Made by a program: the position numbers and the translations under genes. 64,000 bases of DNA, taken from an uncultured Candidatus Saccharibacteria bacterium (GTDB lineage: Bacteria > Patescibacteriota > Minisyncoccia > Phycocordibacterales > UBA9973). The stretch is taken from assembly GCA_964602465.1 (NCBI GenBank), contig CAZRQQ010000001.1, positions 253-64,252 of the forward strand, given 5' to 3'. Under the pieces are notes generated by a model. The model worked only from the letters and a program-made list of their open reading frames with translations, was not told the origin of the DNA and did no database searches. This document shows, in pieces, positions 14,382 to 62,266 of this stretch (within the stretch, counting starts at the first letter, position 1; every line of letters starts with the position of its first letter).

Positions 14382-14467
14382 GCAAATTTGAGCATGTGCG
14401 CTCGAGCACCTGCCGAAGGCCGCCGGTCGAAGACCAAGACGCGCAGAGCGCACATGCTCAAATTTGC
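14382..14467. repeat. 22-bp perfect inverted repeat enclosing a 42-nt GC-rich core
   Basis: gcaaatttgagcatgtgcgctc (14382..14403) and gagcgcacatgctcaaatttgc (14446..14467). The core holds two GAA-loop mini-hairpins, gcc-gaa-ggc and ggtc-gaa-gacc. Confidence 0.85.
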
Positions 14468-15812: not shown

Positions 15813-16514
15813 ATGCATACCATTTGGAATACCCTTATTTACAATCCTATCTACAACGCGCTCGTTTGGATCGCGCAGCATGTGACGATGCAGGACGTGG
15901 GACTTGCGGTGATCGTGCTTACGGTTGTCATCCGCTTCATCCTCATGCCGCTTTCCAAGAAAAGCATCCGAAGCCAGTACGCAATGCGCATGCTCGAGCC
16001 CAAGATCACCGCTATCAAGGCACGCAAGCTTTCAAAAGAAGAAGAAGCAAAGGAAACATTTGCGCTCTACAAATCCGAAGGAGTCAACCCATTTTCTGGC
16101 TGTCTCTATCTCCTCATCCAGCTCCCCATTCTCTTTGCACTCCTCTATGTCTTCCAAAACGGTGTGTATCAACCGACGCATCTCTATAGCTTCCTCAGTG
16201 CTGAGGGACTCAAAGAAACACTCCTCAATATCCTCGACATCACGAAGCCTTCGATTGTGCTCGCTGTGCTCGCCGGTGTGACGCAGGGTATCCAGGCATT
16301 CATCATGCCCAAACCTCCTACTTCCGGCGCTGAAGGATTCCAAGCGCAGTTTGCCAAGAGTATGTCAGTGCAGACGAGATATGTGCTCCCTCTCATTATT
16401 ATCTTTGCTGCAACTAAGTTCGCTGCCGCAGTTTCCCTCTACTGGACGATTACCAATATCTTTTCTATCGCACAAGAGCTCTACTTTAGAAAGCAGTTCA
16501 AGGTCAGTCAATAG
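15813..16514 (+). CDS. yidC: YidC/Oxa1-family membrane protein insertase (short form)
   Basis: LMPLSKKSIRSQYAMRMLEPKI...YKSEGVNPFSGCLYLLIQLPILFALLYVF...YWTITNIFSIAQ. Confidence 0.9.
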   Translation: MHTIWNTLIYNPIYNALVWIAQHVTMQDVGLAVIVLTVVIRFILMPLSKKSIRSQYAMRMLEPKITAIKARKLSKEEEAKETFALYKSEGVNPFSGCLYLLIQLPILFALLYVFQNGVYQPTHLYSFLSAEGLKETLLNILDITKPSIVLAVLAGVTQGIQAFIMPKPPTSGAEGFQAQFAKSMSVQTRYVLPLIIIFAATKFAAAVSLYWTITNIFSIAQELYFRKQFKVSQ

Positions 16515-16521
16515 TAATCAG

Positions 16522-16572
16522 GTAGTAGTTAGTAGGAACAAAAGATTAACGTTTATGTTTTCTACTAGCTAC
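16522..16572. repeat. TAGT-rich palindromic element, copy A (convergent yidC / secretion-block junction)
   Basis: Arms gtagtagttagtaggaac and gttttctactagctac are imperfectly complementary. Shares the TTCTACTA core. Confidence 0.6.
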
Positions 16573-19351: not shown

Positions 19352-20287
19352 TTAGTTAAAGAGAAGCGTAAAGGTTTTTTCGAGATGCTGCAAGCTATAC
19401 GCGTCAGTGGTGATTGCAAGGTTGATCAGGCTCTGTCCATCAGATGCTGGACGCGAGAGGCCGAGTTCGTTTTGCTGCGATGGAGACACGATCTCGCCGT
19501 CGATCGTGGTAGTAAAAGTGAGATCGTTTATACCTTTGGGTGCGGAAAAGTAGTATGGTTCGAGATGGAGCACGATGCCGCCCGTTACGAGATTGATCTG
19601 ATTTGCAAAGCCACGCGCGTAGTCGATAAATCCTTCTTTGTTCTGGTATGCGATCGCAAGTGGTGCAAAGGGGGTGAGACGAAGGCTGTTGGTACCTGAG
19701 AATGTACCGCTCCGTGCCTCTACACCTAGTGTTTCAGCTGCATTGAGGGGATCGTGGCGAAGCGTAATGCTCGAGCGGTTGTACCCAGAGACCGTTTCGA
19801 GCGCCTGCCCATTTCGTGTCCAGTCAAAACTCAGATTTTTGGGCGCGGCTGCAGTTGGGATGGCAGTTGCACGAATAAGGCCACCGACTGGGACTAAGGC
19901 TTTGCCTTTATAAAATGGCGGTGTGTATGCATCTGCTGCTTCCCAAAGAAGATCGATACTTCCGGGGCGGATCGCAACACTTGCACTTGCAGTTTCGAGC
20001 CCTATCCCCCCTACTCGCACCGTTGCAACTGCAGTCGTGCCATTTGCGGGTGCAATGACGGAAATAGATGTTCGTCCAATCGCTTCGACCACAACCTTGC
20101 CGTTGTATGTCCAGCTCATCGTTGCCTGGCTGAGGTCGACGCCAAAGCTACGCGCAGTGAGCGTCACCGTGCTTCCAGCAGCTGGATTGCTCGGAATCAT
20201 ATCAATCGCGATGTCGGGACTGAGTGTTTGTGCAAATGTACTTGTAGTAATAAGGAAACTCGCAAGTACTAAAGTCAGAAAACGCAT
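19352..20287 (-). CDS. Secreted hypothetical protein (311 aa)
   Basis: Signal peptide MRFLTLVLASFLITTSTFAQT. TATACT lies 6 nt before the ATG. Confidence 0.55.
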   Translation of the reverse strand: MRFLTLVLASFLITTSTFAQTLSPDIAIDMIPSNPAAGSTVTLTARSFGVDLSQATMSWTYNGKVVVEAIGRTSISVIAPANGTTAVATVRVGGIGLETASASVAIRPGSIDLLWEAADAYTPPFYKGKALVPVGGLIRATAIPTAAAPKNLSFDWTRNGQALETVSGYNRSSITLRHDPLNAAETLGVEARSGTFSGTNSLRLTPFAPLAIAYQNKEGFIDYARGFANQINLVTGGIVLHLEPYYFSAPKGINDLTFTTTIDGEIVSPSQQNELGLSRPASDGQSLINLAITTDAYSLQHLEKTFTLLFN

Positions 20288-22317: not shown

Positions 22318-22343
22318 TGCCTCAGTAGTATACCGTAGGAGTT

Positions 22344-22424
22344 AGTTAGTAGATAGTAGTTAGTTGTTAGTAGAAATACGCACGATATCCTTCTGTGTCT
22401 CCTACAGACTACTATCTACTTACT
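22344..22424. repeat. TAGT-rich palindromic element, copy B (between the two VirB4-like ORFs)
   Basis: Arms agttagtagatagtagt (22344..22360) and actactatctacttact (22408..22424). The right arm contains the stop codon of 22416..23057. TATACT (22327..22332, minus strand) lies 9 nt before ATG 22317. Confidence 0.75.
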
Positions 22425-23057
22425 ACTCACTGCCTGGGTAACGGTGTCGCCAGGGTTAAATGTTTTGTACAAAAGCTCAATCACCTCTTCAGTGCCGAGC
22501 TGTGCAACGCGAAGCCCGACGCGTGAAAGTCCTTGTTCGACGACACTCACCCGCTCTTCGAGCTGAGTACGCTGCTCTTCAAAGTCAGTGATGCTCTGCG
22601 TAGTCTCGGCAGATCGTTTATTGAGAAACGAAAGCATTTTGCCCAACCCCTTTTCTTGGCTCAAGATCGGCGGGATGTACGGAATGATCACAAAGAAACT
22701 CTTGCGCATGATGTTGACCTGATCAGTGAAACTCTGAATGAACTGAATGTATTCACGGGTCTGTACCTGAAGCAAAGGCTCGGTCTGTTCTTTGAGGCGA
22801 TTTTGAAGCGTCAGTATATATGGGCGAACGTCATAGCGGCGTGACTGGATGCTGATCTGTATCGGGAAGTCGAGTGTGTTGAGAAAGCTTTGAAACTGCG
22901 CAAGGGTCGCACGCTGCTCGTCATAGGATTTGAGTGAGAGGTTGATCGAAGAGACAAGCACGGCCATTGCAAGCGTGCCGTCTTTCATGACGATGATACC
23001 GTCGCGGACTTCTTTGACAGGGACAAATTGTTGTGCGGGTGTTCCGAGATTTGCCAT
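22416..23057 (-). CDS. Protein resembling the N-terminal domain of Gram-positive VirB4 ATPases (213 aa)
   Basis: QQFVPVKEVRDGIIVMKDGTLAMAVLVSSINLSLKSYDEQ...FLNTLDFPIQISIQSRR matches, from memory, the N-terminal segment of PrgJ/TcpF/Orf16-class proteins. Confidence 0.55.
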   Translation of the reverse strand: MANLGTPAQQFVPVKEVRDGIIVMKDGTLAMAVLVSSINLSLKSYDEQRATLAQFQSFLNTLDFPIQISIQSRRYDVRPYILTLQNRLKEQTEPLLQVQTREYIQFIQSFTDQVNIMRKSFFVIIPYIPPILSQEKGLGKMLSFLNKRSAETTQSITDFEEQRTQLEERVSVVEQGLSRVGLRVAQLGTEEVIELLYKTFNPGDTVTQAVSSK

Positions 23058-23077
23058 TGCGTACAGTATAGCAAGTT

Positions 23078-23147
23078 AGTAGTAAGTAGATAGTCGTTAG
23101 TAGAAACGTTTTTGTGATCTCCTACTAACTACTATCTATTTACTACT
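23078..23147. repeat. TAGT-rich palindromic element, copy C
   Basis: 26-nt arms agtagtaagtagatagtcgttagtag (23078..23103) and ctactaactactatctatttactact (23122..23147), 24 of 26 complementary. The right arm encodes ..SSK-stop of the PrgI-like gene. Confidence 0.8.
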
Positions 23148-23546
23148 TTCTGATTTAGGGTCGATAACGTCGAGGCTCCAGGAGAGTGTTTTGAGTTTGC
23201 TTTCGGTAAGGCCGCTTCTGCTTTGACTTGCAGTTGCTTCGGGAACTGTCTTTTGGGGAGCCTTTGGGTCTTGCTTGTGCCAAAGGTAGAGTCGTGAGCG
23301 CGTGTAAAACTTGATGAAGGATTCGACGACGTTGATAAACGGCTTGTCGTTGTATTTGAAAAATGTCAGCGCGAGCGCAAACCCGGCAAGCGCAAATGCA
23401 ATCGGAAGCGCGATGAGGATTGGAAGAAACTTAAACGTAAGGTACACAAGCCCTGCTCCTCCAGCGAGATAAATGAATTGCCGAAACGTAAACGGTCCAA
23501 AGACTTTGTCTTCGATATCAATGAATTGCGGAACCTTGAACTGCAT
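23136..23546 (-). CDS. PrgI-family (VirB3-like) type IV secretion membrane protein
   Basis: MQFKVPQFIDIEDKVFGPFTFRQFIYLAGGAGLVYL plus two TM helices. Sits upstream of the VirB4 genes. Confidence 0.7.
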   Translation of the reverse strand: MQFKVPQFIDIEDKVFGPFTFRQFIYLAGGAGLVYLTFKFLPILIALPIAFALAGFALALTFFKYNDKPFINVVESFIKFYTRSRLYLWHKQDPKAPQKTVPEATASQSRSGLTESKLKTLSWSLDVIDPKSESSK

Positions 23547-23567
23547 GAAGTCAGTATACAGTAGTCA

Positions 23568-23629
23568 GCTAGTAGTTAGTAGTAGAACGCAATGATTGGT
23601 TGCGCTCTACTATCCACACACTACTTACT
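23568..23629. repeat. TAGT-rich palindromic element, copy D (more diverged)
   Basis: Inner stem gtagaacgcaa/ttgcgctctac (23582..23592 / 23600..23610). Outer TAGT-rich arms. Right arm contains agtaagtag, which encodes ..SK-stop of 23621..24187. Confidence 0.6.
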
Positions 23630-24187
23630 GCCGTCTATCGGCTCTAGGTACGGGTCAACTTTCTTGGATGCATCGGATGCGGGGATTGCTTCAGCTAGAG
23701 GTTTTGCCTGCCCCGCGGAGCCTTGGCGAAGTGGGGGTTGTACCGCCGGCGTTTCGGTGTATACCCGCTTAGTTGGTGTAAGGGTTATGGGGGTCGTGAA
23801 GGTTTGTGACATGCGAGCAATACTGTCGGAAGATACAGATTTTGCAGGAACGATGCTTGGAGCTAGAGAATCCATCTCGCTGCTCACTTCTATAAGAAGC
23901 TGAAGTTCATCAATAACCTTTTCTTGGATAATAGTCTTGATTTTATTTTTTGTTTCTATGCTTATCGGTAGTCCATCAATATAACCAACGACTTCTTCAA
24001 GAGTACTTGTACCGAGCAGATAAAACGTTACATCGTTGTATATGTGTTCTGTTTGTTCTGAATTATTGAGAAGTGTACCAATTTCTGAAACAACCTTTTC
24101 TAAGCCTTCTTCAAATATAAAGTCACTCACTTCTTGTGGGAGTTCTTCAATATTGTTTTCTATTGTATTTCCAAGATCGTTATTCAT
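23621..24187 (-). CDS. Acidic hypothetical protein (188 aa)
   Basis: Intact ORF. Its start is 1 nt after the stop of the upstream gene. Contains the GC-rich 30-mer. Confidence 0.5.
   Translation of the reverse strand: MNNDLGNTIENNIEELPQEVSDFIFEEGLEKVVSEIGTLLNNSEQTEHIYNDVTFYLLGTSTLEEVVGYIDGLPISIETKNKIKTIIQEKVIDELQLLIEVSSEMDSLAPSIVPAKSVSSDSIARMSQTFTTPITLTPTKRVYTETPAVQPPLRQGSAGQAKPLAEAIPASDASKKVDPYLEPIDGSK
23707..23736. repeat. GC-rich 30-mer repeat, copy 1 (inside a CDS)
   Basis: cctgccccgcggagccttggcgaagtgggg is 26/30 identical to 32562..32591. Confidence 0.85.
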
Positions 24188-32161: not shown

Positions 32162-33055
32162 CTATTGTACACGATTTCGCTCGACTGCAACTGCAAGTGT
32201 CTTCCAGTCCGCAAGGGTAAGGTCTTCGGGGCGTGTTTTGGGATCGATAGTTGCTTCGTTCAATAGAGAAAGAGCAAGAGATTTGCCTGCCCGCCCTCCC
32301 GAGGAGGGAGCAGGCGGGTTATCCAAATATTCCGCCAAGCTCCCCCCGATCTGTTTGCGCTTCTTGCCGAATATTGACTTGAGTACTGAGAAAAATATCT
32401 TTTCATCGCAATCTTTGAAAAATGCGCGCGAGATACCGTTGATCGAAATAATAGCCGAATCCACCTTTGGTGCTGGAGTAAATGCACCCCTCGGTACTTT
32501 GTCTATGATCTTGGGCACACCGTACGCCTTCACGGCGATCGAAAGCACGCTTTCTTTTTTACCTGCCCTGCGTAGCCTTGGCGAAGAAGGGTCGCGACCG
32601 ATAATTCTCTCCGCAACTTCTTTTTGGATAAGCAGTACCATCTGCGTCGGTTGAAATGAAGCACTGAGAAACTGCTCGATGATTGCGCCAGTGATATAGT
32701 ACGGGATGTTGGCAATGAGTTTGTACTCTCTGCCGTACCACTGCAGCGTCATCGGATCAAAGGTGAGGATGTCTTTCTCGAGGATTGTAAGTCTTTTTTC
32801 CTCGATCTCATCCTTAAATGTTTCGGTGAGATGATGAATGAGCTCTCGATCTTTCTCGACTGCGACGACGTGCTTGGCTTTTTGTAAAAGTTGATTGGTC
32901 AAAATCCCTGTGCCGGGGCCAATCTCAAGTACAGTGTCACTCGCCGTGATACCCCCCGCTTCCACGATCTGCCGTAGTGCCTTCTCGCTCTTGAGGAAAT
33001 GTTGCCCGAGGGATTTCTTTGCTCTCGTCCCGTTAGAGATATGATGAGTTTTCAT
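32162..33055 (-). CDS. rsmA: 16S rRNA (adenine1518/1519-N6)-dimethyltransferase RsmA/KsgA
   Basis: SLGQHFL, VLEIGPGTGILT, ANIPYYIT, QKEVAERI, FTPAPKVDSA. Start trimmed to MKTHHISNG, with GGAG 4 nt upstream. Confidence 0.9.
   Translation of the reverse strand: MKTHHISNGTRAKKSLGQHFLKSEKALRQIVEAGGITASDTVLEIGPGTGILTNQLLQKAKHVVAVEKDRELIHHLTETFKDEIEEKRLTILEKDILTFDPMTLQWYGREYKLIANIPYYITGAIIEQFLSASFQPTQMVLLIQKEVAERIIGRDPSSPRLRRAGKKESVLSIAVKAYGVPKIIDKVPRGAFTPAPKVDSAIISINGISRAFFKDCDEKIFFSVLKSIFGKKRKQIGGSLAEYLDNPPAPSSGGRAGKSLALSLLNEATIDPKTRPEDLTLADWKTLAVAVERNRVQ
32282..32320. repeat. GC-rich palindromic segment inside rsmA, possibly a diverged copy of the GC-rich repeat
   Basis: tttgcctgcccgccctcccgaggagggagcaggcgggtt shares the 5' tttgcctgccc and 3' gggtt with the 23703..23739 copy. 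Encodes extra residues PPAPSSGGRAGKS. Confidence 0.5.
32562..32591. repeat. GC-rich 30-mer repeat, copy 2 (inside rsmA)
   Basis: cctgccctgcgtagccttggcgaagaaggg is 26/30 identical to 23707..23736. Read in a different frame (SPRLRRAG). Confidence 0.85.
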
Positions 33056-33204
33056 GCTTCTCCATTCAATCACATACTTCACGTCACCACAAATAGAAAG
33101 TATGCAAACCATTCTCTAATGGGATTCATCTCGATACTATACATGATTTTATTCTCTACAAAAGAAAAAGGTGTCGCATAGCAACACCTGTAGCTGAAAT
33201 CAGT

Positions 33205-33879: not shown

Positions 33880-35814
33880 CTAGAGAAAGACCGTCGTAAA
33901 GCCAGCTTCGCCGCTCCGGGTTTCTCGAGTAATGAGTTCTTCGGGGATGTCGAGGAGAAATTCACTCGGCATGCGGATGTCGCGCATACCATAGATCGTG
34001 CGCATGCTTGCGTAGGTGAGATATAGTTTGTGGCGCGCACGGGTGATGGCGACATACATGAGACGACGCTCTTCTTCGGCATCGGCTCCTGTTGCATTTC
34101 GGTCGCGTTCGCTTGGGAAGAGTCCTTGTTCAAGACCAACCACAAAGACGGTTGCAAATTCAAGGCCCTTTGCTGCGTGAACGGTCATGAGTTTGACGCC
34201 GTTTGCCGCTTCGATGTTGTCTTGGTCGCTCATGAGGGTTGCTTCTTCGATGAGTTTCTCAATCCCCGCTTCAGTCCCGAGATGATCGTACCGTGCACCG
34301 ATCGTCACGAGTTCGCCCAAGTTTTCAAGTCGTTCTGCACCTTCGAGTTTGTCTTCTTTGTATGCAGCATGCATGCCACTCTTGTCGATGATGAAGTTGA
34401 TCGTTTCTGAAACTGAGTGGTCGTTCATGTACTCGCGAATTGTTTCGAGGAGTGCAAAAAAAGTATCGACAGAAAGTTTTGCCTTGCCGCTGAGTTCTTC
34501 TTTGGCAAATACTTTGGCGATCGTCACTTTGCCAATGCCGCGCGCGGGTACATTGATGATGCGTTTGATGTCGACGAGTGAGTCGGGGTTGAGCGCTGCA
34601 CGAATGTAACAGAGCACGTCTTTGATTTCCTTTCGTTCAAAGAACCGCACGCCGAGCACTTGGTAGGGAATGGAGTATGAGAGAAATGCTTCTTCGAGCG
34701 CGCGCGATTGTGCGTTGGTTCTGAAAAGCACCGCAATCTCACTTGCCGGCATGCCGCCATCGATGTGTTCCACACAACGCTCGACGACAAAGTTTGCCTC
34801 ATCTGTTTCGTCGTACGCAGTGTACATGGAGATCAGCTCCCCATCACTATTGCTCGTGAAAAGATTTTTGGGCGTACGATAATTATTTTTGTTGATGACT
34901 TCGTTTGCGGCACCGAGCACAGTTTTGGTCGAGCGATAGTTTTCTTCGAGTACGACGACTGTTGCTTCTGGATAATCGCGCTCAAATTCCAAAATGTTTT
35001 TGATGTTTGCACCGCGCCACGAATAAATACTTTGATCGGAGTCGCCCACTACGCACAAATTTTTGGTGTGAGCCGCGAGTGCTTTGGCGATCCGATACTG
35101 TACTTCATTGGTGTCTTGGTATTCATCTATATGTATGTGACTCCATGTCGCTTGGCACCAGCTTCGCGCCCCATCGTTCTTTTCCAAAAGTTCAACCGTC
35201 TGGGTGAGGAGATCATCAAAGTCGAGCGACTTCTGTTCCTTTTTGAGCGCGCTGTATTTCTTCCAGATACGTCCGGCCATGCGATATGACGGATTGGCCT
35301 CGCTTTCGAGTTCTTCGGGGGTGAGGAGCGCATTGTTGCTTCGGCTGATGATGTTTTTGATGCTGCGCGGATCAGTCGTCTTGGGGTCGATACCAAAGGA
35401 GTTGAGCACTTCTTTGATGAGCGACATCGTATCTCCATCATCAAGGATCGTAAATCGCTTTGCAGTGCCGTTGTATGCACCAAACTTCCGGAGCAAAAAT
35501 ACTCCGAGGCTATGAAAGGTGCTCACAAACGGCCCTACTTCGCCCTTCGGGCTTCGCGGGGCAGGCCCCCGTATTTCTAATGGAATGTGTTTGATCATAC
35601 TCGCCACGCGTTCCCGCATTTCCTTTGCGGCTTTGTTTGTAAATGTAACCGCGAGGATCGACTCAGGCGCAATGCCGCTTGTGATCAAATGTCCGATGCG
35701 ATGGACGATCGTCTTGGTCTTGCCCGCGCCTGCACCTGCGACGATGAGCAGTGGTCCGTCAGTTGTACGCACTGCTTGTGCTTGGGCCACGTTGAGCCCT
35801 AGAGTAAAATCCAT
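33880..35814 (-). CDS. pcrA: ATP-dependent DNA helicase PcrA/UvrD family
   Basis: Walker A AGAGAGKTKT, DEYQDTN, VGDSDQSIYSWRGA, TVHAAKGLEF, YVAITRAR. ATG at 35814 (GTG at 35817 is also possible). Confidence 0.9.
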   Translation of the reverse strand: MDFTLGLNVAQAQAVRTTDGPLLIVAGAGAGKTKTIVHRIGHLITSGIAPESILAVTFTNKAAKEMRERVASMIKHIPLEIRGPAPRSPKGEVGPFVSTFHSLGVFLLRKFGAYNGTAKRFTILDDGDTMSLIKEVLNSFGIDPKTTDPRSIKNIISRSNNALLTPEELESEANPSYRMAGRIWKKYSALKKEQKSLDFDDLLTQTVELLEKNDGARSWCQATWSHIHIDEYQDTNEVQYRIAKALAAHTKNLCVVGDSDQSIYSWRGANIKNILEFERDYPEATVVVLEENYRSTKTVLGAANEVINKNNYRTPKNLFTSNSDGELISMYTAYDETDEANFVVERCVEHIDGGMPASEIAVLFRTNAQSRALEEAFLSYSIPYQVLGVRFFERKEIKDVLCYIRAALNPDSLVDIKRIINVPARGIGKVTIAKVFAKEELSGKAKLSVDTFFALLETIREYMNDHSVSETINFIIDKSGMHAAYKEDKLEGAERLENLGELVTIGARYDHLGTEAGIEKLIEEATLMSDQDNIEAANGVKLMTVHAAKGLEFATVFVVGLEQGLFPSERDRNATGADAEEERRLMYVAITRARHKLYLTYASMRTIYGMRDIRMPSEFLLDIPEELITRETRSGEAGFTTVFL

Positions 35815-35881
35815 CACGTACGAAACAGGCCTAACAGCCCATCTTAAAAGTTAGATATAAAGCCGACCTGTTTTGTACGTG
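35815..35881. repeat. 15-bp inverted repeat abutting the pcrA start codon
   Basis: cacgtacgaaacagg (35815..35829) and cctgttttgtacgtg (35867..35881). One G-T position. 37-nt loop. Confidence 0.7.
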
Positions 35882-52528: not shown

Positions 52529-52550
52529 TTGAATGTACAGCTAAAAAATC

Positions 52551-52580
52551 AAAAACCGACCATTACTGGCCGGTTTTTTT
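52551..52580. terminator. Bidirectional terminator, AAAACCGACC family
   Basis: aaaaaccgacc-attact-ggccggttttttt at a convergent junction. Confidence 0.7.
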
Positions 52581-52605
52581 ATTTAGACCTCCGGCGTTTC
52601 AGTGG

Positions 52606-53975: not shown

Positions 53976-54614
53976 ATGAAAAAAGTACTTGCAATTCAGC
54001 TTCCTGCACCCTGCGGGTTTGCTTGTCCGAACTGTCGATTCAAAAATCACAATGATGGGGATCCTGATAAGCTTTTTTTAACACTAGAACGAAAGATAGT
54101 GAGTGAGCACTATGATGAGGTATACATTACTAGTAATGGTGAAACAGGAAGATCGGTCATTTTCAATAAAACTATATCTTTATTGAAGAGCTATAAGATA
54201 CCGATTTCTGTACTATGCGCTTCACAAGTATCAATTGTTCCAGGACTAAAAAGAGTAGAAATCAGCATTCATCACAGTATTCTGACAGTAGAAGAAGCGA
54301 TAGTGAAGGCAAAAAGCTTCGATATTCCTATCATTCTTTCAGTTATAGATGATGAATTATCACCTATAGACTGCAAATCACTTGTAGATCGGTTTGGTGT
54401 AGAAGGAATACTTGTTAGGGCACTGCAAAATGAAGGGCGATCAATCAAATCAGCCGGGAAGAGCGAATACTACGTTGCAGAAACATGCAGCCGCGATATC
54501 GGTGTATTCCCTGTTGTTGCCTACAAGGAGCTTCTAGAGTTTGGAAGATCTGTGGAATGTCTTGATGAATATGGAAACAACGTCAAATTACTCGGGTCTC
54601 CTGCAGCTGCGTAA
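53976..54614 (+). CDS. Small radical-SAM-like protein (212 aa)
   Basis: CGFACPNC is a CX3CX2C motif at residues 13-20. ITSNGETG is a GGEP-like segment. Confidence 0.5.
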   Translation: MKKVLAIQLPAPCGFACPNCRFKNHNDGDPDKLFLTLERKIVSEHYDEVYITSNGETGRSVIFNKTISLLKSYKIPISVLCASQVSIVPGLKRVEISIHHSILTVEEAIVKAKSFDIPIILSVIDDELSPIDCKSLVDRFGVEGILVRALQNEGRSIKSAGKSEYYVAETCSRDIGVFPVVAYKELLEFGRSVECLDEYGNNVKLLGSPAAA

Positions 54615-54620
54615 AAATTC

Positions 54621-54649
54621 AAAACCGACCAATGATGGCCGGTTTTTTT
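54621..54649. terminator. Bidirectional terminator, AAAACCGACC family
   Basis: aaaaccgacc-aatgat-ggccggttttttt. Near-identical to 52551..52580. Confidence 0.7.
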
Positions 54650-54737
54650 ATTTCTTCTTTACTCCATGTTTCACGTGTAACCCCATTAGAAAGCAGCACC
54701 CGCTTCCGCATGTCTGCTTCTAACTGGGCAGGCTTCC

Positions 54738-56975: not shown

Positions 56976-57047
56976 GCACCTGTGGTGAAATGGATATCAT
57001 TATTGACTTCGGATCAATCGTTGTGGGTTCGAGTCCTGCCAGGTGCA
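56976..57047 (+). tRNA. tRNA-Arg (anticodon UCG)
   Basis: Hand-folded cloverleaf: acceptor GCACCTG/CAGGTGC, anticodon arm ATTGA-CTTCGGA-TCAAT, T loop TTCGAGT. No encoded CCA. Confidence 0.85.
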
Positions 57048-57089
57048 CACTGGAAAACATGTACAGTTTATGTATAATGCTTTCCACAT

Positions 57090-57160
57090 GCGGTTATGGT
57101 TTAGTGGTAGAATGCGTCCTTGCCAAGGACGAGACCAGGGTTCGATTCCCTGTAGCCGCA
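57090..57160 (+). tRNA. tRNA-Gly (anticodon GCC)
   Basis: Acceptor GCGGTTA/TAGCCGC, anticodon arm CGTCC-TTGCCAA-GGACG, T arm CAGGG-TTCGATT-CCCTG. TATAAT promoter at 57073..57078. No CCA. Confidence 0.9.
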
Positions 57161-57173
57161 CTAAAAAGGATTA

Positions 57174-57203
57174 GCAAAAAGACCCAGATAAGGGTCTTTT
57201 TGC
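57174..57203 (+). terminator. Intrinsic terminator after the tRNA-Arg/Gly pair
   Basis: 12-bp stem gcaaaaagaccc-agataa-gggtctttttgc. Confidence 0.75.
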
Positions 57204-57243
57204 TTGTCTGGTGTATAGACCATTAGACAAAACCTGTCGAATA

Positions 57244-57304
57244 TGGGGATAAAACTGTTATTTTCTAACGAAACTGTGGATAACTAGGGGTACAAGTGGG
57301 ATAA
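57244..57304 (+). promoter_or_regulatory. Three same-orientation GGATAA motifs, including one perfect DnaA box
   Basis: TGGGGATAA 57244..57252, TGTGGATAA 57275..57283 (perfect), GTGGGATAA 57296..57304. Confidence 0.35.
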
Positions 57305-57331
57305 CGGACGACTTTTATATACACTGTCTGT

Positions 57332-57694
57332 ATGATCAGGACTTTTACCTCGCCTACACAAGCCCTTGGAGAAAAAGGGGAAGAAGCAGCTGTTTCTTGG
57401 CTCAAAAAGGAAGGATTTCGGATCGTTGAGCGAAACGTGGCAGGGAAGTATGGTGAGATCGATATCGTGGCCAAAAAGGGGAAAGTTCACTATTTCTTTG
57501 AGGTAAAGGCAGGAAAGGCGGGAAGCTGGTTCAATCCGGCCGAGAACCTTACGCCAGCAAAGCTCAGCAAATTCCTCATATCAGTCGAACATTATGTACT
57601 CACGCATAAGATCGGGGAGTACCGAGCCCAGGGTATTATTGTGTATTTGAGCGATACCAAAGAGACAAAAGTGGAGCTCATCGAGCTTTCGTAG
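57332..57694 (+). CDS. yraN: YraN-family (UPF0102) endonuclease-like protein
   Basis: GEKGEEAAVSWLKKEGFRIVERNVAGKYGEIDIVAKKG..HYFFEVK. Confidence 0.85.
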   Translation: MIRTFTSPTQALGEKGEEAAVSWLKKEGFRIVERNVAGKYGEIDIVAKKGKVHYFFEVKAGKAGSWFNPAENLTPAKLSKFLISVEHYVLTHKIGEYRAQGIIVYLSDTKETKVELIELS

Positions 57695-57765
57695 TGCGGG
57701 ATAGGGGAATCGGACTCCTGCTCTCAGTTTGGAAAACTGATGTTCTACCATTAAACTAATCCCGC
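57695..57765 (-). tRNA. tRNA-Gly (anticodon UCC) with an atypical T arm
   Basis: Acceptor GCGGGAT/ATCCCGC, anticodon arm TCAGT-TTTCCAA-ACTGA. T arm AGGAG-TCCGATT-CCCCT has an A-C mismatch and C at the universally U (Psi55) position. Abuts the yraN stop. Confidence 0.7.
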
Positions 57766-57791
57766 AGTTATTTCATTGTACCAAATTTCTA

Positions 57792-57919
57792 CAGGGAATT
57801 GCCCGCGACTCAAAAACTCGCCAGTCGCTCGTTTTTGGTCTGGGCACCGCCTCGCGGTCTCGCCTGCTGGCTCGACATCGCTCCGGCGTTCAATTCCCTT
57901 TGCAAAGCCTTGCTTTGCA
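57792..57919. repeat. GC-rich structured element closed by inverted tRNA-T-arm-like arms, plus an adjacent 8-bp hairpin
   Basis: agggaattg (57793..57801) pairs with caattccct (57891..57899). cagggaattg is identical to 57931..57940 of tRNA-Pro. gttcaattccct (57888..57899) equals the tRNA-Pro T-loop read on the other strand. Hairpin tgcaaagc/gctttgca at 57901..57919. Confidence 0.7.
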
Positions 57920-57922
57920 TTG

Positions 57923-57993
57923 TCGGGGTGCAGGGAATTGAACCCTGCCCTCATGTTCCCAAAACATGTATACTACCGATATACTACACCCCG
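57923..57993 (-). tRNA. tRNA-Pro (anticodon UGG)
   Basis: Acceptor CGGGGTG/CACCCCG, anticodon arm CATGT-TTTGGGA-ACATG, T arm CAGGG-TTCAATT-CCCTG. No CCA. Confidence 0.9.
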
Positions 57994-58019
57994 CGGTGTT
58001 TCTCACTAAATTTGTAGAG

Positions 58020-58090
58020 TCGGGCTATTGGGAATCGAACCCAAGCCTTACCCACCCCATGGGCAAATACTACCACTGTACGATAGCCCG
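58020..58090 (-). tRNA. tRNA-Pro (anticodon GGG)
   Basis: Acceptor CGGGCTA/TAGCCCG, anticodon arm TGCCC-ATGGGGT-GGGTA, T arm TTGGG-TTCGATT-CCCAA. No CCA. Confidence 0.85.
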
Positions 58091-58226: not shown

Positions 58227-60314
58227 ATGTTCCACATTCGTGCAGAGTTTTTGCGTACACACAAACGAACTGTTGCTGCGCTTGTGTTTGGTCTCGCATT
58301 CTCCGTCCTCACTGCATACGCCGTACCACCAGGTACTAAATACAACCCCGGGGATACGCTTGATCCAAACTGTGTACCAGGAACTTCAAACTGTACGGTG
58401 GATATAAGCGGGGGATCATCACCAATCACTGTTGAAAATACTGACTCACTGTTTTCAACAGGACTCACTGGTACAGGAGAAAACTCTATTGCAACCAAGG
58501 CAATCTTTTTAGGGCTCAATGCAGGAAATGGAGCAATCAATGCAGACTTCTCGACCTTCCTCGGATATCAGGCGGGATATGGTGCAACTGATGCAAATCA
58601 ATCGTTTTTTAGTGGGTATGAAGCAGGGTACAATGCAGAAACAGCTGAATCATCAAATTTCTTTGGTCTTCGTGCAGGATATGGTGCAACAAGTGCAAAC
58701 AATGCAAACTTTTTGGGTGCCAGTGCTGGGTACGGCGCAACAGGCGCTGAACTCTCAAACTTTTTTGGGTCAAGTGCAGGATATGGTGCAACAAATGCAA
58801 GCAATTCCTTCTTTGCAGGTGCAAATGCAGGAAATAGCGCAACGCACGCATACCACTCCATATTTATCGGTGCTGATAGTGGACTGGAAGCAACCTATGC
58901 TACTCGCTCAAACTTTTTTGGACAGGAAGCAGGATACCAGGTCGGGACTAATAGTGATTGGGATGGTGACAATACCGGAACATATTTTGGTGCAAACTTC
59001 TTTGGGTATCGTGCGGGGTATCAAGCAGCAAATGCTGTAAATGCTAACTTCATTGGTACAAATGCTGGTAATGGTGCGGTTGATTCAGTTGGCGCAAACT
59101 TTATTGGTGAGGATGCTGGTTTTAATGCAGACAACGCATCGTTTTCAAACTTTATTGGTTCTGGAGCTGGTAGCGGCGCAACTGATGCTTCACTTTCAAA
59201 CTTTATCGGAAATAGTGCAGGTTTTAATGCAATAAATGCAGAAACTTCGAATTTTATTGGGGATCTTGCTGGGTATGATGCAACCAACTCGCGTAATTCA
59301 AATTTCATCGGCTTAGAAGCAGGAAATGGCACGGTTAATGCTGCAAACTCCATTTTTATAGGTACACGCGCTGGTTCTGATGCGTACCTTAATGAGAGTG
59401 CTCTTGATAATACTGCCTCCTATGATGAAATCTCCACCTTCGCCAATACGTCTATCCTCATTGGGCACCGTGCCTCAACCGGTGGTTTCTCCAACTCCAT
59501 TGCCATTGGTGCATACGCAACAAATACTGCAACCAATCAATTCATGGTCGGCTCCTCTACTCGTCGTATCAACAACCTCGTCTTTAATGGCGGCACGGGC
59601 AACACCTGTAGCGTAAACGCAGGTACTGGTATTAGCTGTTCATCTGATGAACGTTTGAAAACAAACATCATCGATCTCTCTAGTGTGCTCACCAAACTCG
59701 ATACAATCCGCACGGTTACGTATAACTGGAATTCAGATCCAAATGGTAAGACCATGATCGGCTTCCTTGCGCAAAATTTGCAAGCGCAATTTCCAGAACT
59801 CGTGACGCAAAACATCGACGGCATGCTCTCGGTAAACTATGCGCAAATCACCCCAGTGCTTGTGGAAGCAATAAGAGAAATCAATCACAACATTGTCGGC
59901 ATTGCAGATCTCGCACAAGAAAATAATTGGAGAACGAGCTTACTTGCCTGGTTCGCAGATAGAGCAAACGGCATCACTAAATTGTTTGCAGGTGAAATCG
60001 AAACCAAACACCTTTGTGTATCAGATGAAAGCGGTGCAAAGACGTGTCTTACCAAGTCCCAACTCGATGCGCTTTTGAACAATCAAGTAGGGCAGACAAT
60101 TATCATCAATAATTCATCCGTACCACAAGAGCCAGTACCTACTGATACAACTTCTGAACCTACAAACGATGAGATCGTCGAGTCAGAATCATCTCCACAA
60201 GAAGTTGTCCCGACAGAGGAGCCTGTGCTTTCAGAAGAACCAGTTTCAACTACCGAATCCTCAGTGCAAGATTCAGTATCAGAATCTGAACAATCAACAC
60301 CTATTGAGCAGTAA
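58227..60314 (+). CDS. Tail-fibre-like repeat protein with a C-terminal peptidase-S74 intramolecular chaperone domain
   Basis: Signal/TM N-terminus. About 20 degenerate repeats of type SNFFG..AGYGAT.A. C-terminal SSDERLKTNIIDLSSVLTKLDTIRTVTYNWN...IGFLAQNLQAQFPELV...VNYAQITPVLVEAIREIN matches the S74 autoproteolytic chaperone pattern. Confidence 0.75.
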   Translation: MFHIRAEFLRTHKRTVAALVFGLAFSVLTAYAVPPGTKYNPGDTLDPNCVPGTSNCTVDISGGSSPITVENTDSLFSTGLTGTGENSIATKAIFLGLNAGNGAINADFSTFLGYQAGYGATDANQSFFSGYEAGYNAETAESSNFFGLRAGYGATSANNANFLGASAGYGATGAELSNFFGSSAGYGATNASNSFFAGANAGNSATHAYHSIFIGADSGLEATYATRSNFFGQEAGYQVGTNSDWDGDNTGTYFGANFFGYRAGYQAANAVNANFIGTNAGNGAVDSVGANFIGEDAGFNADNASFSNFIGSGAGSGATDASLSNFIGNSAGFNAINAETSNFIGDLAGYDATNSRNSNFIGLEAGNGTVNAANSIFIGTRAGSDAYLNESALDNTASYDEISTFANTSILIGHRASTGGFSNSIAIGAYATNTATNQFMVGSSTRRINNLVFNGGTGNTCSVNAGTGISCSSDERLKTNIIDLSSVLTKLDTIRTVTYNWNSDPNGKTMIGFLAQNLQAQFPELVTQNIDGMLSVNYAQITPVLVEAIREINHNIVGIADLAQENNWRTSLLAWFADRANGITKLFAGEIETKHLCVSDESGAKTCLTKSQLDALLNNQVGQTIIINNSSVPQEPVPTDTTSEPTNDEIVESESSPQEVVPTEEPVLSEEPVSTTESSVQDSVSESEQSTPIEQ

Positions 60315-60343: not shown

Positions 60344-62266
60344 ATGAAACGATTTCGAAAAGGTATTTTCGTGCTACTTTTGCTCGGTGTTGTCGCAGTC
60401 GCATATGCAGCAACAGGCACCATCGATCCGCGCAATGTCGGCAACTGGAAGGCACAAGTGCAAAACAGTGGGCTTGGTGCAAATACCACGATCAACTTTG
60501 GTAAATTCACGACACAGTCCGCGTACAACATTACGGTAAGTGATAGTGAGCTTCGCGGCTTTGCATGGGGCAATGGTGTCGGATGGATCGTTACCAATTG
60601 TGCAGATACGACGAGTGGCTGCAGTGTAAGCAATGACAATTTCAAAATAGCGAATGATGGAACAGGTAACCTTTCCGGATATGCATGGGGAGAAAACACT
60701 GGCTGGATTAACTTCGGACCATTTACCAACCCTGCGATTTCGACGGTCAAAATCACGAACGGCTTTTTTGGAGGCACGCTTGGCGACGCAGGGTACGCAT
60801 GGTCGCAAAACTACGGCTGGATCCTCTTTGATTGCACGCAGGTGGATAGTTGTGTCGAGACTGATTGGGGAGTCACCACAACTGCAAGCTGTAGTGACGG
60901 CATTCAGAATCAAAACGAAACCGGTGTAGATACAGGTGGAGTGTGTGGAGGAGGTGGAACTACAGGGGGGTACCCGCCATCATGTTCAGACGGCATCAAA
61001 AATCAGAATGAGACCGGAGTAGACAGTGGGGGTGTTTGTAGTGCTCCACCAGTCATCCCTTCGTGTAGTGACGGCATTCAGAATCAAAACGAAACCGGTG
61101 TAGATATCGGGGGTATTTGTGGTACGACAAACCCACCCGTAAACCCTCCAACCAATCCTCCTATAAACCCACCGGTTACACCGCCTGTAAATCCTCCAAG
61201 TAATCCACCCTCAATCAATCCGCCAAGTGGTCCGAGTGGTTGTCAGCTCAACTCGGGACTCTGCGTGCCGACTATTCCACCAAGCACCCCTTCGTCAGGA
61301 GGCAAAAATCCGCTCATCGATATCGTTACCGCAACGGGCGTGATCATGCCGATCGCAAGTGCCATTGTTTCATTTGTGGTAAGTAATCCAATCACGTTCA
61401 AAGATATCCCGCTTCTCTTTGGGCAGGGGTGGTCATCGTTCCTTACTGCTATCGGTATGAAGAAGCGCAGGAAGCCATGGGGTGTCGTCTATGACTCGAT
61501 CACCAAGCGTCCGATCGATCCGGCATACGTCATGCTCACTGATATGATGGGCAATGAAATCGCAACAGCGATCACAGATATCAATGGTCGCTACGGCTTT
61601 GCAGTGGATCCCGGGACGTACAAGATCGTAGTGAACAAATCCAACTACGTCTTCCCATCGACCAAACTTGCCGGCAAGACCTCTGATAGCCTCTACGATG
61701 ATCTGTATTTTGGGGGCGATGTTGTTGTGGCCAAGGAAGGAGAAATCATTACCAAAAACATTCCGATCGATCAAATCGCCTTTGACTGGAATGAGTACAC
61801 CAAGGCGCAGGGTGGTACGTACGGACAAAAACTCCATATGTATCGTTTGGGCGACGTCATACTCTACCATCTTGCGCGGTTTCTCTTTGTACTCGGATTT
61901 GCATTTGCGATTTATGCGCAGCTCTTTTATCCAAGTCTATACAACATGATCGTGCTTGGGTTGTATGCTGTCCTTACAATCTTGCAGCTCTTTACACCAG
62001 CGTTCAATCAAAAAGGTTCGGTCAAAGACAAATATGCCGAGACGCCACTGCCGTTCTCAGTTGTGCGCCTGGTATCGACAGTGACTGGTAGGGAAGTGGC
62101 GCGCAAAGTCGCCGATCGCGTCGGCAGCTACTATGGCCTTGTGCCCAACGGCAATTACAAGATTGTCATCGACAAGAAACGCGGCGCAGAAGAATACGAA
62201 AAACACGAACTCGACAAAGACCGAAAAGTGACGGAAGGCTACATCAAAGAAAAGTTCAAGATCTAG
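60344..62266 (+). CDS. Large surface/membrane protein with GWI-type repeats, three Cys-rich CSDGIxNQNETGVD modules, a Pro-rich linker and a CarboxypepD_reg-like domain
   Basis: Start trimmed to the signal peptide MKRFRKGIFVLLLLGVVAVAYA (TATACT 7 nt upstream). Motifs: GFAWGNGVGWIV / GYAWGENTGWINF / GYAWSQNYGWILF. ITDINGRYGFAVDPGTYKIVV. Several TM helices. Confidence 0.65.
   Translation: MKRFRKGIFVLLLLGVVAVAYAATGTIDPRNVGNWKAQVQNSGLGANTTINFGKFTTQSAYNITVSDSELRGFAWGNGVGWIVTNCADTTSGCSVSNDNFKIANDGTGNLSGYAWGENTGWINFGPFTNPAISTVKITNGFFGGTLGDAGYAWSQNYGWILFDCTQVDSCVETDWGVTTTASCSDGIQNQNETGVDTGGVCGGGGTTGGYPPSCSDGIKNQNETGVDSGGVCSAPPVIPSCSDGIQNQNETGVDIGGICGTTNPPVNPPTNPPINPPVTPPVNPPSNPPSINPPSGPSGCQLNSGLCVPTIPPSTPSSGGKNPLIDIVTATGVIMPIASAIVSFVVSNPITFKDIPLLFGQGWSSFLTAIGMKKRRKPWGVVYDSITKRPIDPAYVMLTDMMGNEIATAITDINGRYGFAVDPGTYKIVVNKSNYVFPSTKLAGKTSDSLYDDLYFGGDVVVAKEGEIITKNIPIDQIAFDWNEYTKAQGGTYGQKLHMYRLGDVILYHLARFLFVLGFAFAIYAQLFYPSLYNMIVLGLYAVLTILQLFTPAFNQKGSVKDKYAETPLPFSVVRLVSTVTGREVARKVADRVGSYYGLVPNGNYKIVIDKKRGAEEYEKHELDKDRKVTEGYIKEKFKI
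60890..61106 (+). repeat. 43-nt perfect direct repeat within the surface-protein gene
   Basis: tgtagtgacggcattcagaatcaaaacgaaaccggtgtagata occurs at 60890..60932 and 61064..61106. The middle module (about 60973..61015) encodes nearly the same peptide with many synonymous differences. Confidence 0.85.

Follow-up and report, generated by a model that had tools for sequence, protein, structure and literature searches.

A probable REP-like mobile hairpin of 30-36 nucleotides within genes of an uncultured Saccharibacteria bacterium and in other phyla

Rickettsia palindromic elements (RPEs) of the RPE-1 type are about 100-150 bp long and confined to Rickettsia, while the GC clusters and byp elements of yeast mitochondria are short, GC-rich, palindromic mobile inserts in the protein-coding genes of a compact, AT-richer genome; the byp elements, which are organellar, are bypassed by ribosomes and can have lengths that are not divisible by three. 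Repetitive extragenic palindromic sequences (REPs) are palindromes of 20-40 bp with an unpaired GTAG or CGTC tag, and their in-frame intragenic copies code for 7-8 residues as single units, with helicases and repair genes among the hosts; the Rickettsia elements RPE-4/6 have been equated with CGTC REPs (Di Nocera et al. 2013, PMC3733652). The present analysis concerns a window of 64,000 nucleotides from an uncultured Candidatus Saccharibacteria bacterium (contig CAZRQQ010000001.1, positions 253 to 64,252), in which two similar 30-mers lie within unrelated open reading frames (ORFs). These 30-mers are probably copies of a non-autonomous mobile hairpin of REP/RPE type, GC-rich and only 30-36 nt long, hereafter family 1, which is represented in the window by three copies:

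23707..23736, + strand: family-1 copy A, CCTGCCCCGCGGAGCCTTGGCGAAGTGGGG, 30 nt; the opposite strand codes for PPLRQGSAGQ in an ORF of 188 amino acids
32562..32591, + strand: family-1 copy B, CCTGCCCTGCGTAGCCTTGGCGAAGAAGGG, 30 nt; a 10-codon insertion, PSSPRLRRAG, at RsmA residues 156-165
35533..35565, - strand: family-1 copy D, CCTGCCCCGCGAAGCCCGAAGGGCGAAGTAGGG, 33 nt; on the coding strand of a helicase gene, read as GPAPRSPKGEVG

Copies A and B were the subject of the original prediction, and a repeat search of the window bore out its description of them: both 30-mers have the positions and letters that it had quoted, the same orientation and 26/30 identical positions, and the extra similarity noticed in the T-rich 5' flank amounts to 30/35 identical positions once this flank is counted. 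Both copies lie on the + strand and both host genes on the - strand, where they are read in different frames (PLRQGSAGQA at copy A and SSPRLRRAG at copy B), and in other genomes the unit is read in several further ways. One unit with many translations indicates that the similarity lies in the DNA and not in the protein, as had been claimed. The probability of a chance match was assessed in 30 null windows, namely 15 triplet shuffles within 2-kb blocks and 15 first-order Markov sequences, by taking the best 30-nt pair in either orientation. The best null pairs had 23-25 identities and 26 was reached in 0/30 null windows, while the degenerate 30-mer pattern, which was derived from copies A and B themselves, gave 0 matches in 100 shuffles. 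The 13-nt exact core of the two copies was, on its own, not significant when compared to chance. By itself, the A/B pair exceeds chance moderately, and the decisive support is provided by copies outside the window. Copy D, located through a scan for GC-rich islands and for GCCTGCCC, has the orientation opposite to that of copies A and B; this third copy had been overlooked, as had an insert of a second family in rsmA.

Distribution and hairpin structure of family 1

A search pattern taken from the three window copies, CCTGCCCYGCGNAGCCN{1,8}GGCGAAG, was applied to one genome per bacterial species. It matched at least 118 loci in other genomes, compared to about 1 expected in random sequence by a rough estimate, and the search of other genomes proposed with the original prediction thus returned further copies, in three reading frames and both orientations. 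Among the matches listed, the hosts are by record title mainly members of the Planctomycetota-Verrucomicrobiota-Chlamydiota (PVC) phyla (Verrucomicrobiota, Planctomycetota, Lentisphaerae and Kiritimatiellae), together with some proteobacterial, Marinimicrobia, Cloacimonadota and further metagenome-assembled genomes (MAGs). At least 22 MAGs belong to Patescibacteria (Peregrini-/Peribacteria, Saccharibacteria, Woese-, Levyi-, Staskawicz-, Harrison- and Berkelbacteria). The GC content of the loci ranges from 32 to 73%, and the family is present in nine viral contigs too. Its dispersal is seen both in the three copies of the 64-kb window and in several MAGs that have 3-5 separate loci each among the matches listed.

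In low-GC, Patescibacteria-type loci, the unit typically lies deep within long ORFs. According to Pfam, the Patescibacteria hosts include an ATP-dependent DNA ligase, DNA polymerase I, a 2-oxoacid:ferredoxin oxidoreductase (POR), GatA, a ComM/Mg-chelatase-like ATPase, GatB, a GT1 glycosyltransferase, SecA, UvrC and a methyltransferase, and the unit sits inside or between the Pfam domains of these proteins. Where the gene is opposite to the unit, the encoded peptides are PLRQGSAGQA, PTSPRLRGAG or PHFAKAPRGR, the first of which, the peptide of copy A, is also coded in the Patescibacteria loci L081, L090 and L130; where the gene is on the strand of the unit, they are PAPRSPGEVG, GLPREARRAKWG or ACPAKPEGRSGE. 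The CCTG strand was opposite to the gene in 14/16 deep intragenic copies (CCCCG subtype, Patescibacteria). In PVC genomes, copies are mostly outside long ORFs, often clustered or within short tandem or low-complexity repeats. Head-to-tail tandem units with a 35-nt period were observed in L042 (1363-1426). In L025, L066 and L093 (Gammaproteobacteria MAG), the unit is nested in a longer palindrome, GTCATTGCGAGCCC...GGGCGTGGCAATC, suggestive of repeats that are composite or nested, and in L024 (1590-1700) and L096 the units abut the 5' end of tRNA genes, that of L024 being a tRNA-Leu gene.

The family-1 unit of 30-36 nt reads (G)CCTG, CCCYGC, GNA, GCC(N), loop, (N)GGC, GAA, GYRGGG. The tag (G)CCTG at the 5' end is unpaired. 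CCCYGC pairs with GYRGGG as the outer stem and GCC(N) with (N)GGC as the inner one, the two stems being separated by the 3x3 internal loop GNA/GAA, and the loop enclosed by the inner stem is variable. Together with the bases next to it, the internal loop gives each unit two GCGNAGC motifs, and GCGNAGC is known as an extraordinarily stable, nuclease-resistant DNA mini-hairpin (PMC13037366). Covariation analysis of 92 distinct foreign copies revealed standard pairs in 95.5% of the cells of the proposed pairs. Covariation was located at pairs 11-36 (U-A in 46 copies, C-G in 25 and U-G in 17) and 20-27, and the optional inner extension pair was C-G in 31 copies, G-C in 5 and U-A in 2; the wobble pairs G-U/U-G were present in 17 and 26 of the 92 copies. 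None of 500 shuffles reached the observed covariation score or the observed count of cells altered on both sides, and shifting the 3' partner strand cut the pairing by half. Most of the remaining columns were fixed by the search pattern and are uninformative on pairing either way. Bases beyond this pattern were nevertheless kept: the 3' GGG in 87-90 of the 92 copies, YRGGG as the five bases after GAAG in about 80% of the matches, and a G ahead of CCTG in about 85%. The ends had been proposed to co-vary, which holds family-wide, where the outer stem covaries (pair 11-36), whereas copies A and B of the window alone give one pair only. No family of Rfam 15 covers the element, either in the window at the gathering threshold or in 10 copy-bearing loci at E <= 1.

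A covariance model, R1, was built solely from foreign family-1 copies and gave exactly three strong matches in the window, which are copy B (32559-32594, 50.2 bits, E ~1e-10), copy A (23704-23739, 48.7 bits, E 5e-10) and copy D (35530-35568 on the - strand, 42 bits, E 3e-8). On the syntenic 20 kb of four relatives, R1 found nothing convincing, the best being a marginal match in L010 (11 bits, E 1.8). Inverted repeats at 14404-14445 and 57802-57890 had been suggested as possible relatives, which could not be upheld: the repeats, at 14382-14467 and 57802-57890, are both intergenic, had no R1 match even at E <= 10 and were rejected. The one at 14382-14467 consists of a perfect 22-nt inverted repeat (GCAAATTTGAGCATGTGCGCTC) around a 42-nt GC-rich core. 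The GCCTGCCC sites at 19803 and 54726 were also rejected as further copies after comparison with R1.

Insertion sites in the window

The three host genes and a further insert, which belongs to a sister family (family 2), are located as follows:

23621..24187, - strand: host gene 1, the 188-aa ORF, in a PrgI/TraC-like (type IV secretion-like) block
32162..33112, - strand: host gene 2, rsmA/ksgA, 16S rRNA dimethyltransferase, whose homologues carry PF00398; two different inserts
33880..35817, - strand: host gene 3, UvrD/PcrA-like helicase, whose orthologues carry PF00580/PF13361; holds copy D
32286..32318, + strand: family-2 copy C, CCTGCCCGCCCTCCCGAGGAGGGAGCAGGCGGG, 33 nt; an 11-codon insertion, PPAPSSGGRAG, at RsmA residues 247-257

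The homologues of RsmA are from Patescibacteria, also called the candidate phyla radiation (CPR), for example Nomurabacteria and Minisyncoccia, the closest being 72% identical, and 30 of them with 61-77% identity were aligned. The peptide PSSPRLRRAG, between the conserved GRD and KKESVLS, occurs in the RsmA of the window only and is absent from 30/30 homologues; PPAPSSGGRAG is likewise absent from 30/30, with a different insert at that place in P0016. In the DNA alignment of rsmA, the gaps measure 30 nt at copy B and 33 nt at copy C, which are exact unit lengths. Relatives read GAT AAA AAA GAA at the site of copy B (L010), and in the simplest reconstruction the target GA^TAAAAAA accordingly received the reverse complement of CCTGCCCTGCGTAGCCTTGGCGAAGAAGGG at ^. 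The flanks of the two inserts, GA^TAAAAAA and GATAA^CAAATC, show no target-site duplication. The AlphaFold model of RsmA had a mean predicted local distance difference test score of 87.9, with dips to 67-68 and 73-76 in the two insert-bearing stretches of 20 residues, and most of both inserts was modelled as coil. An identical RsmA is encoded by four independent short contigs (two samples, two assemblers), and thus the inserts are not an assembly artefact.

The helicase of the window has 8 residues more than 4/4 orthologues, and the insert is absent from those four. In-frame insertions into ORFs that are absent from orthologues, as described for RPEs, were thus found in rsmA (30 and 33 nt; 30 homologues) and in the helicase gene (24 nt net; four orthologues). 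The original prediction had envisaged such lineage-specific insertion into unrelated ORFs, for which the 10-codon insertion of rsmA and the presence of the element in many genomes now speak; by host, rsmA bears the proposal out, while the 188-aa ORF does not allow an insertion to be shown, copy A sitting there within a Pro/Thr/Ser-rich linker of variable length. No Pfam family matched the 188-aa ORF. The syntenic loci compared were L005, L007, L010 and L011, and the gene order common to these four relatives is helicase, rsmA, large membrane protein, 188-aa ORF orthologue, PrgI and TraC-like. A gene for a PF05635 protein (23S rRNA intervening-sequence protein) was observed between the 188-aa ORF orthologue and PrgI in L007 (17186-17530) and L009/L010 (19527-19871); it is absent from the window, L005 and L011.

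Comparison with described elements and mode of spread

Family 1 shares with REPs the short stem-loop, a GC-rich imperfect palindrome within the range of 20-40 nt (units of 30-36 nt), an unpaired 4-nt end tag, G-T stem pairs, the multi-copy state with occasional clustered or tandem copies, the targeting by IS110, and occasional in-frame genic copies that add 7-11 residues, often in helicases and repair/replication genes. It differs in that the tag of both families is (G)CCTG and not a terminal GTAG or CGTC (the GNAG of the unit lies within the internal loop, not at the end), that no REP-associated tyrosine transposase (RAYT) was found in a weak search of 1.7 Mb, and that the encoded peptides are unlike all listed intragenic REPs of O. 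terrae and R. baltica (e.g., VGPALAAG; PMC3733652 supplement). In addition, the unit is nearly unchanged across several phyla, and intragenic placement seems to be the rule, not the exception, in Patescibacteria. With RPEs, the family has in common palindromic repeats that stand in frame in unrelated ORFs, in varied frames, tolerated at protein surfaces and in a reduced genome; however, the units of 30-36 nt are shorter than the 100-150 bp of the Rickettsia elements, their sequence is unrelated to that family, and the hosts are Patescibacteria and members of many other phyla.

The ends of IS200/IS605 elements and their mini derivatives likewise combine a subterminal hairpin with a short tag beside it, insert without duplicating the target and show a strong bias of orientation, which for family 1 is 14:2 relative to genes. 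No Y1/HUH transposase was found in a limited search, however, there is no pair of left and right ends, and the unit is a single hairpin. A miniature inverted-repeat transposable element was rejected, with no target-site duplication at the two clean rsmA sites and a unit that is a single hairpin with an unpaired 5' tag. Finally, yeast GC clusters and byp elements are likewise short GC-rich palindromic inserts within coding genes of an AT-richer compact genome, although all inserts measured here keep the frame and the yeast elements are organellar.

If family 1 is a mobile hairpin of REP/RPE type, each copy placed at a new site would be an exact unit and leave the target unduplicated. Most likely, the unit would move as a hairpin of single-stranded DNA, with a trans-acting enzyme recognising its tag and stem, as in the REP/RAYT and IS200/IS605 systems; mobilisation of a single-strand hairpin fits the data because no target duplication was seen and the orientation bias is 14:2. 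In the large PVC genomes copies would end up mostly between genes, and in the gene-dense Patescibacteria within genes, where survival would require a unit length divisible by three, the absence of a new stop codon and a tolerant surface loop to accommodate the 8-11 added residues. This would result in lineage-specific peptide insertions in housekeeping proteins, and the inserts are most likely selfish or neutral passengers and not functional protein modules. Four loci of a Phycisphaerales MAG (L056, L064, L116 and L120) share a 1.7-kb repeat whose end coincides precisely with the hairpin; it encodes an IS110-family DEDD transposase and, as an IS that targets REPs would, has a related hairpin at its other end. 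Insertion of IS110 elements into REPs is known (PMC1525189; PMC11208160), and an IS110 element abutting the hairpin therefore indicates REP-like behaviour of family 1.

Several observations weigh against a mobile hairpin of this kind. All-vs-all clustering of 1855 ORFs from 118 loci revealed no shared transposase near the copies, yielding only IS110 (in one MAG) and an HNH/AP2-like ORF (in five Planctomycetes loci), and phmmer detected no IS200/RAYT-like ORF among 9934 ORFs (1.7 Mb), which is a weak test with approximate queries (IS200 TnpA and E. coli RAYT). No recent movement was seen, all four assemblies of the population carrying the inserts. The net gain of the helicase gene is 24 nt compared to a unit of 33 nt, which blurs the insert boundaries, and the 188-aa ORF exceeds the two closest of its four orthologues by no more than 1-2 residues, so that an insertion is not demonstrable there. 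Unit lengths divisible by three dominate outside ORFs also (36/45 vs 21/22 within them); the 30- and 33-nt forms prevail everywhere, and divisibility by three was dropped as a mark of selection in ORFs, being not discriminating. The family was ascertained with a window-derived pattern and its loci were counted among the matches listed; copy numbers and taxonomic spread are consequently lower bounds and biased, while the taxonomic labels of MAGs may contain binning errors. When folded one by one, copies A, B and D did not exceed composition-matched shuffles in stability (z = +0.8 to -0.4). The folding and covariation test suggested earlier thus succeeded for the covariation of the family and failed for the stability of single window copies, and the structural case for a hairpin rests on covariation, not on energy. 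The HNH/AP2-like ORF, of about 276 aa, was observed within 8 kb of the hairpin in L015, L029, L030, L065 and L128.

Spread of the units without any transposase, through short, nuclease-resistant single-stranded fragments, either taken up or remaining from DNA turnover, that are captured at gaps or breaks, or through gene conversion or template switching between copies, seems unlikely. It would account for near-identical units in unrelated phyla, at loci of 32-73% GC and in the nine viral contigs, as well as for the missing transposase near the copies, and the two stable GCGNAGC mini-hairpin motifs of each unit (PMC13037366) are consistent with it. At the helicase site, moreover, the 3' part of the unit (GGCGAAGTAGGG) lies over a similar ancestral sequence (GGAGAACTACC), as microhomology capture would give. 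On the other hand, the conserved unpaired 5' tag, stem and internal loop look like a site recognised by a protein, and exact units, as inserted at two sites, are more typically the work of enzymes that cut and paste or copy.

That the element is retained for a signalling role of its RNA or DNA structure, for example as a terminator, a pause site or a stabiliser of mRNA, as has been proposed for REPs, with the protein insertions as a side effect, appears quite improbable. The G-U/U-G wobbles favour pairing of one strand, as in transcribed REPs (PMC3733652), and the PVC copies are mostly intergenic and often clustered. However, the CCTG strand is the template strand in 14/16 deep intragenic copies of Patescibacteria, where the mRNA complement turns the wobbles into C-A mismatches, both orientations occur within the window, no Rfam family matches, and single copies are not unusually stable. 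An RNA-structure role in Patescibacteria is unlikely because most mRNAs carry the complement of the wobble-competent strand. A chance likeness between two GC-rich stretches of coding sequence, or a protein motif common to both, for which the unremarkable 13-nt core and the mere two copies first visible could be cited, is refuted by the at least 118 external copies, the covariation and the R1 matches (both 30-mers recovered at E ~1e-10 by a model of foreign copies) as well as by the 26/30 identity never reached in null windows, the protein motif being excluded because the frames differ.

The kind of element to which the mobile hairpin would belong is known already, since small palindromic repeats able to sit in frame within genes are represented by REPs and RPEs. 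Literature searches for the element sequence and for CPR together with REP/RAYT found no description of it, and neither the family, nor its CCTG tag, its near-identical presence in several phyla and its habitual residence in CPR housekeeping genes are described in the literature searched or in Rfam. The original prediction was not aware of in-frame insertion of short repeats in this kind of genome; none was found described for Patescibacteria, although in-frame REPs are known outside Rickettsia (PMC3733652). Tentatively, the CCTG-tagged hairpins may be a third, hitherto undescribed REP-like superfamily beside GTAG and CGTC, which would cross phyla (PVC, Patescibacteria, Proteobacteria and some phages) with a near-unchanged unit of 30 nt, possibly without a RAYT, and would be a systematic source of lineage-specific peptide insertions in essential proteins of CPR. 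The proteins of CPR/Patescibacteria are full of unexplained lineage-specific insertions, and a 30-nt hairpin translated in whichever frame it lands in offers a concrete source for some of them. Such inserts distort marker-gene alignments and phylogenies (rsmA, Pol I, GatA/B, SecA and UvrC), and recurrent "motifs" such as SAGQA or RLRGAG arise without protein homology. That a near-invariant unit occurs in distant phyla, carries a new tag and has no known transposase suggests either that some mobilising activity is still to be discovered or that the unit travels horizontally by an unusual route, and model R1 can be used for a census of any genome, which makes the system simple and testable.

Sister family and other repeats

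The second insert of rsmA was used to derive the family-2 pattern GCCCGCCCTCCCN{3,7}GGGAGN{1,3}GGCGGG, which matched at least 120 metagenome contigs. In contigs of 34-58% GC, all family-2 matches listed read cCTGCCCGCCCTCCC[loop]GGGAGCAGGCGGG except three (L240, L246 and L169), and the preceding CCT is conserved though it lies outside the search pattern. Both families accordingly consist of an unpaired CCTG followed by a hairpin that starts with CCC and ends with GGG, a layout of tag and hairpin that resembles REPs with another tag. Copy C folds better than shuffles (z = -2.8), and units identical to it are present in the metagenome contigs L181, L183 and L233. Family 2 also occurs inside long ORFs, where it is read PARPPESGAGG or PPAPSSGGRAG. 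Most pattern matches in contigs of >60% GC belong to a different, terminator-like hairpin and were treated as noise, and sequences similar to the 5' half of a tRNA, found before family-2 units in L208 and L239, were not called as tRNAs and were dropped. In L174 (3471-3662), three family-2 units stand 80 nt apart with identical spacers and are thus tandem duplications rather than CRISPR arrays.

Other GC-rich palindromic in-frame inserts were observed in relatives, in L007 (8418-8441), L005 (950-993), L010 (10431-10467) and L011 (10429-10461 and 6163-6193). A perfect 18-nt palindrome, CCTGCCTGCGCAGGCAGG, is shared by rsmA of L007 and an integrase gene of L005, and GCGCGGGGAAGCGTACGCTTCCCCGCGC lies within a Mg-chelatase-like gene of a relative. 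The inserts TTGCCCGC...GCGGGCAA (rsmA of L010) and ACCTGCC...GCAGG occupy the same RsmA loop as the window insert, and this loop, after 'AR(D)', is a recurrent insertion site across several lineages.

The window itself contains further repeats. Stop-codon-rich heptad repeats (TAGTAGT TAGTAGA ..., complement CTACTAA...) were observed at 842-887, 16503-16556, 22341-22432, 23071-23156 and 23548-23630, where they form inverted-repeat hairpins in the spacers around each small gene of the PrgI/TraC-like block; the heptad pattern TAGTAGTTAGTAG, with <=2 mismatches, had 12 matches compared to 0.6 expected, and these hairpins may be terminators or another repeat family. Two terminator-like hairpins of 41 nt, at 52544-52584 and 54613-54653, are 88% identical (AAAACCGACCA...TGGCCGGTTTTTTTATTT). 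A coding tandem repeat with a 51-nt period and at least 9 units extends over 58520-59340 and is followed by three 59-nt repeats at 60890-61122, both of which probably belong to a repeat-rich surface protein. Five tRNA genes are clustered on both strands at 56976-58090, with the GC-rich stretch 57802-57890 between two of them.

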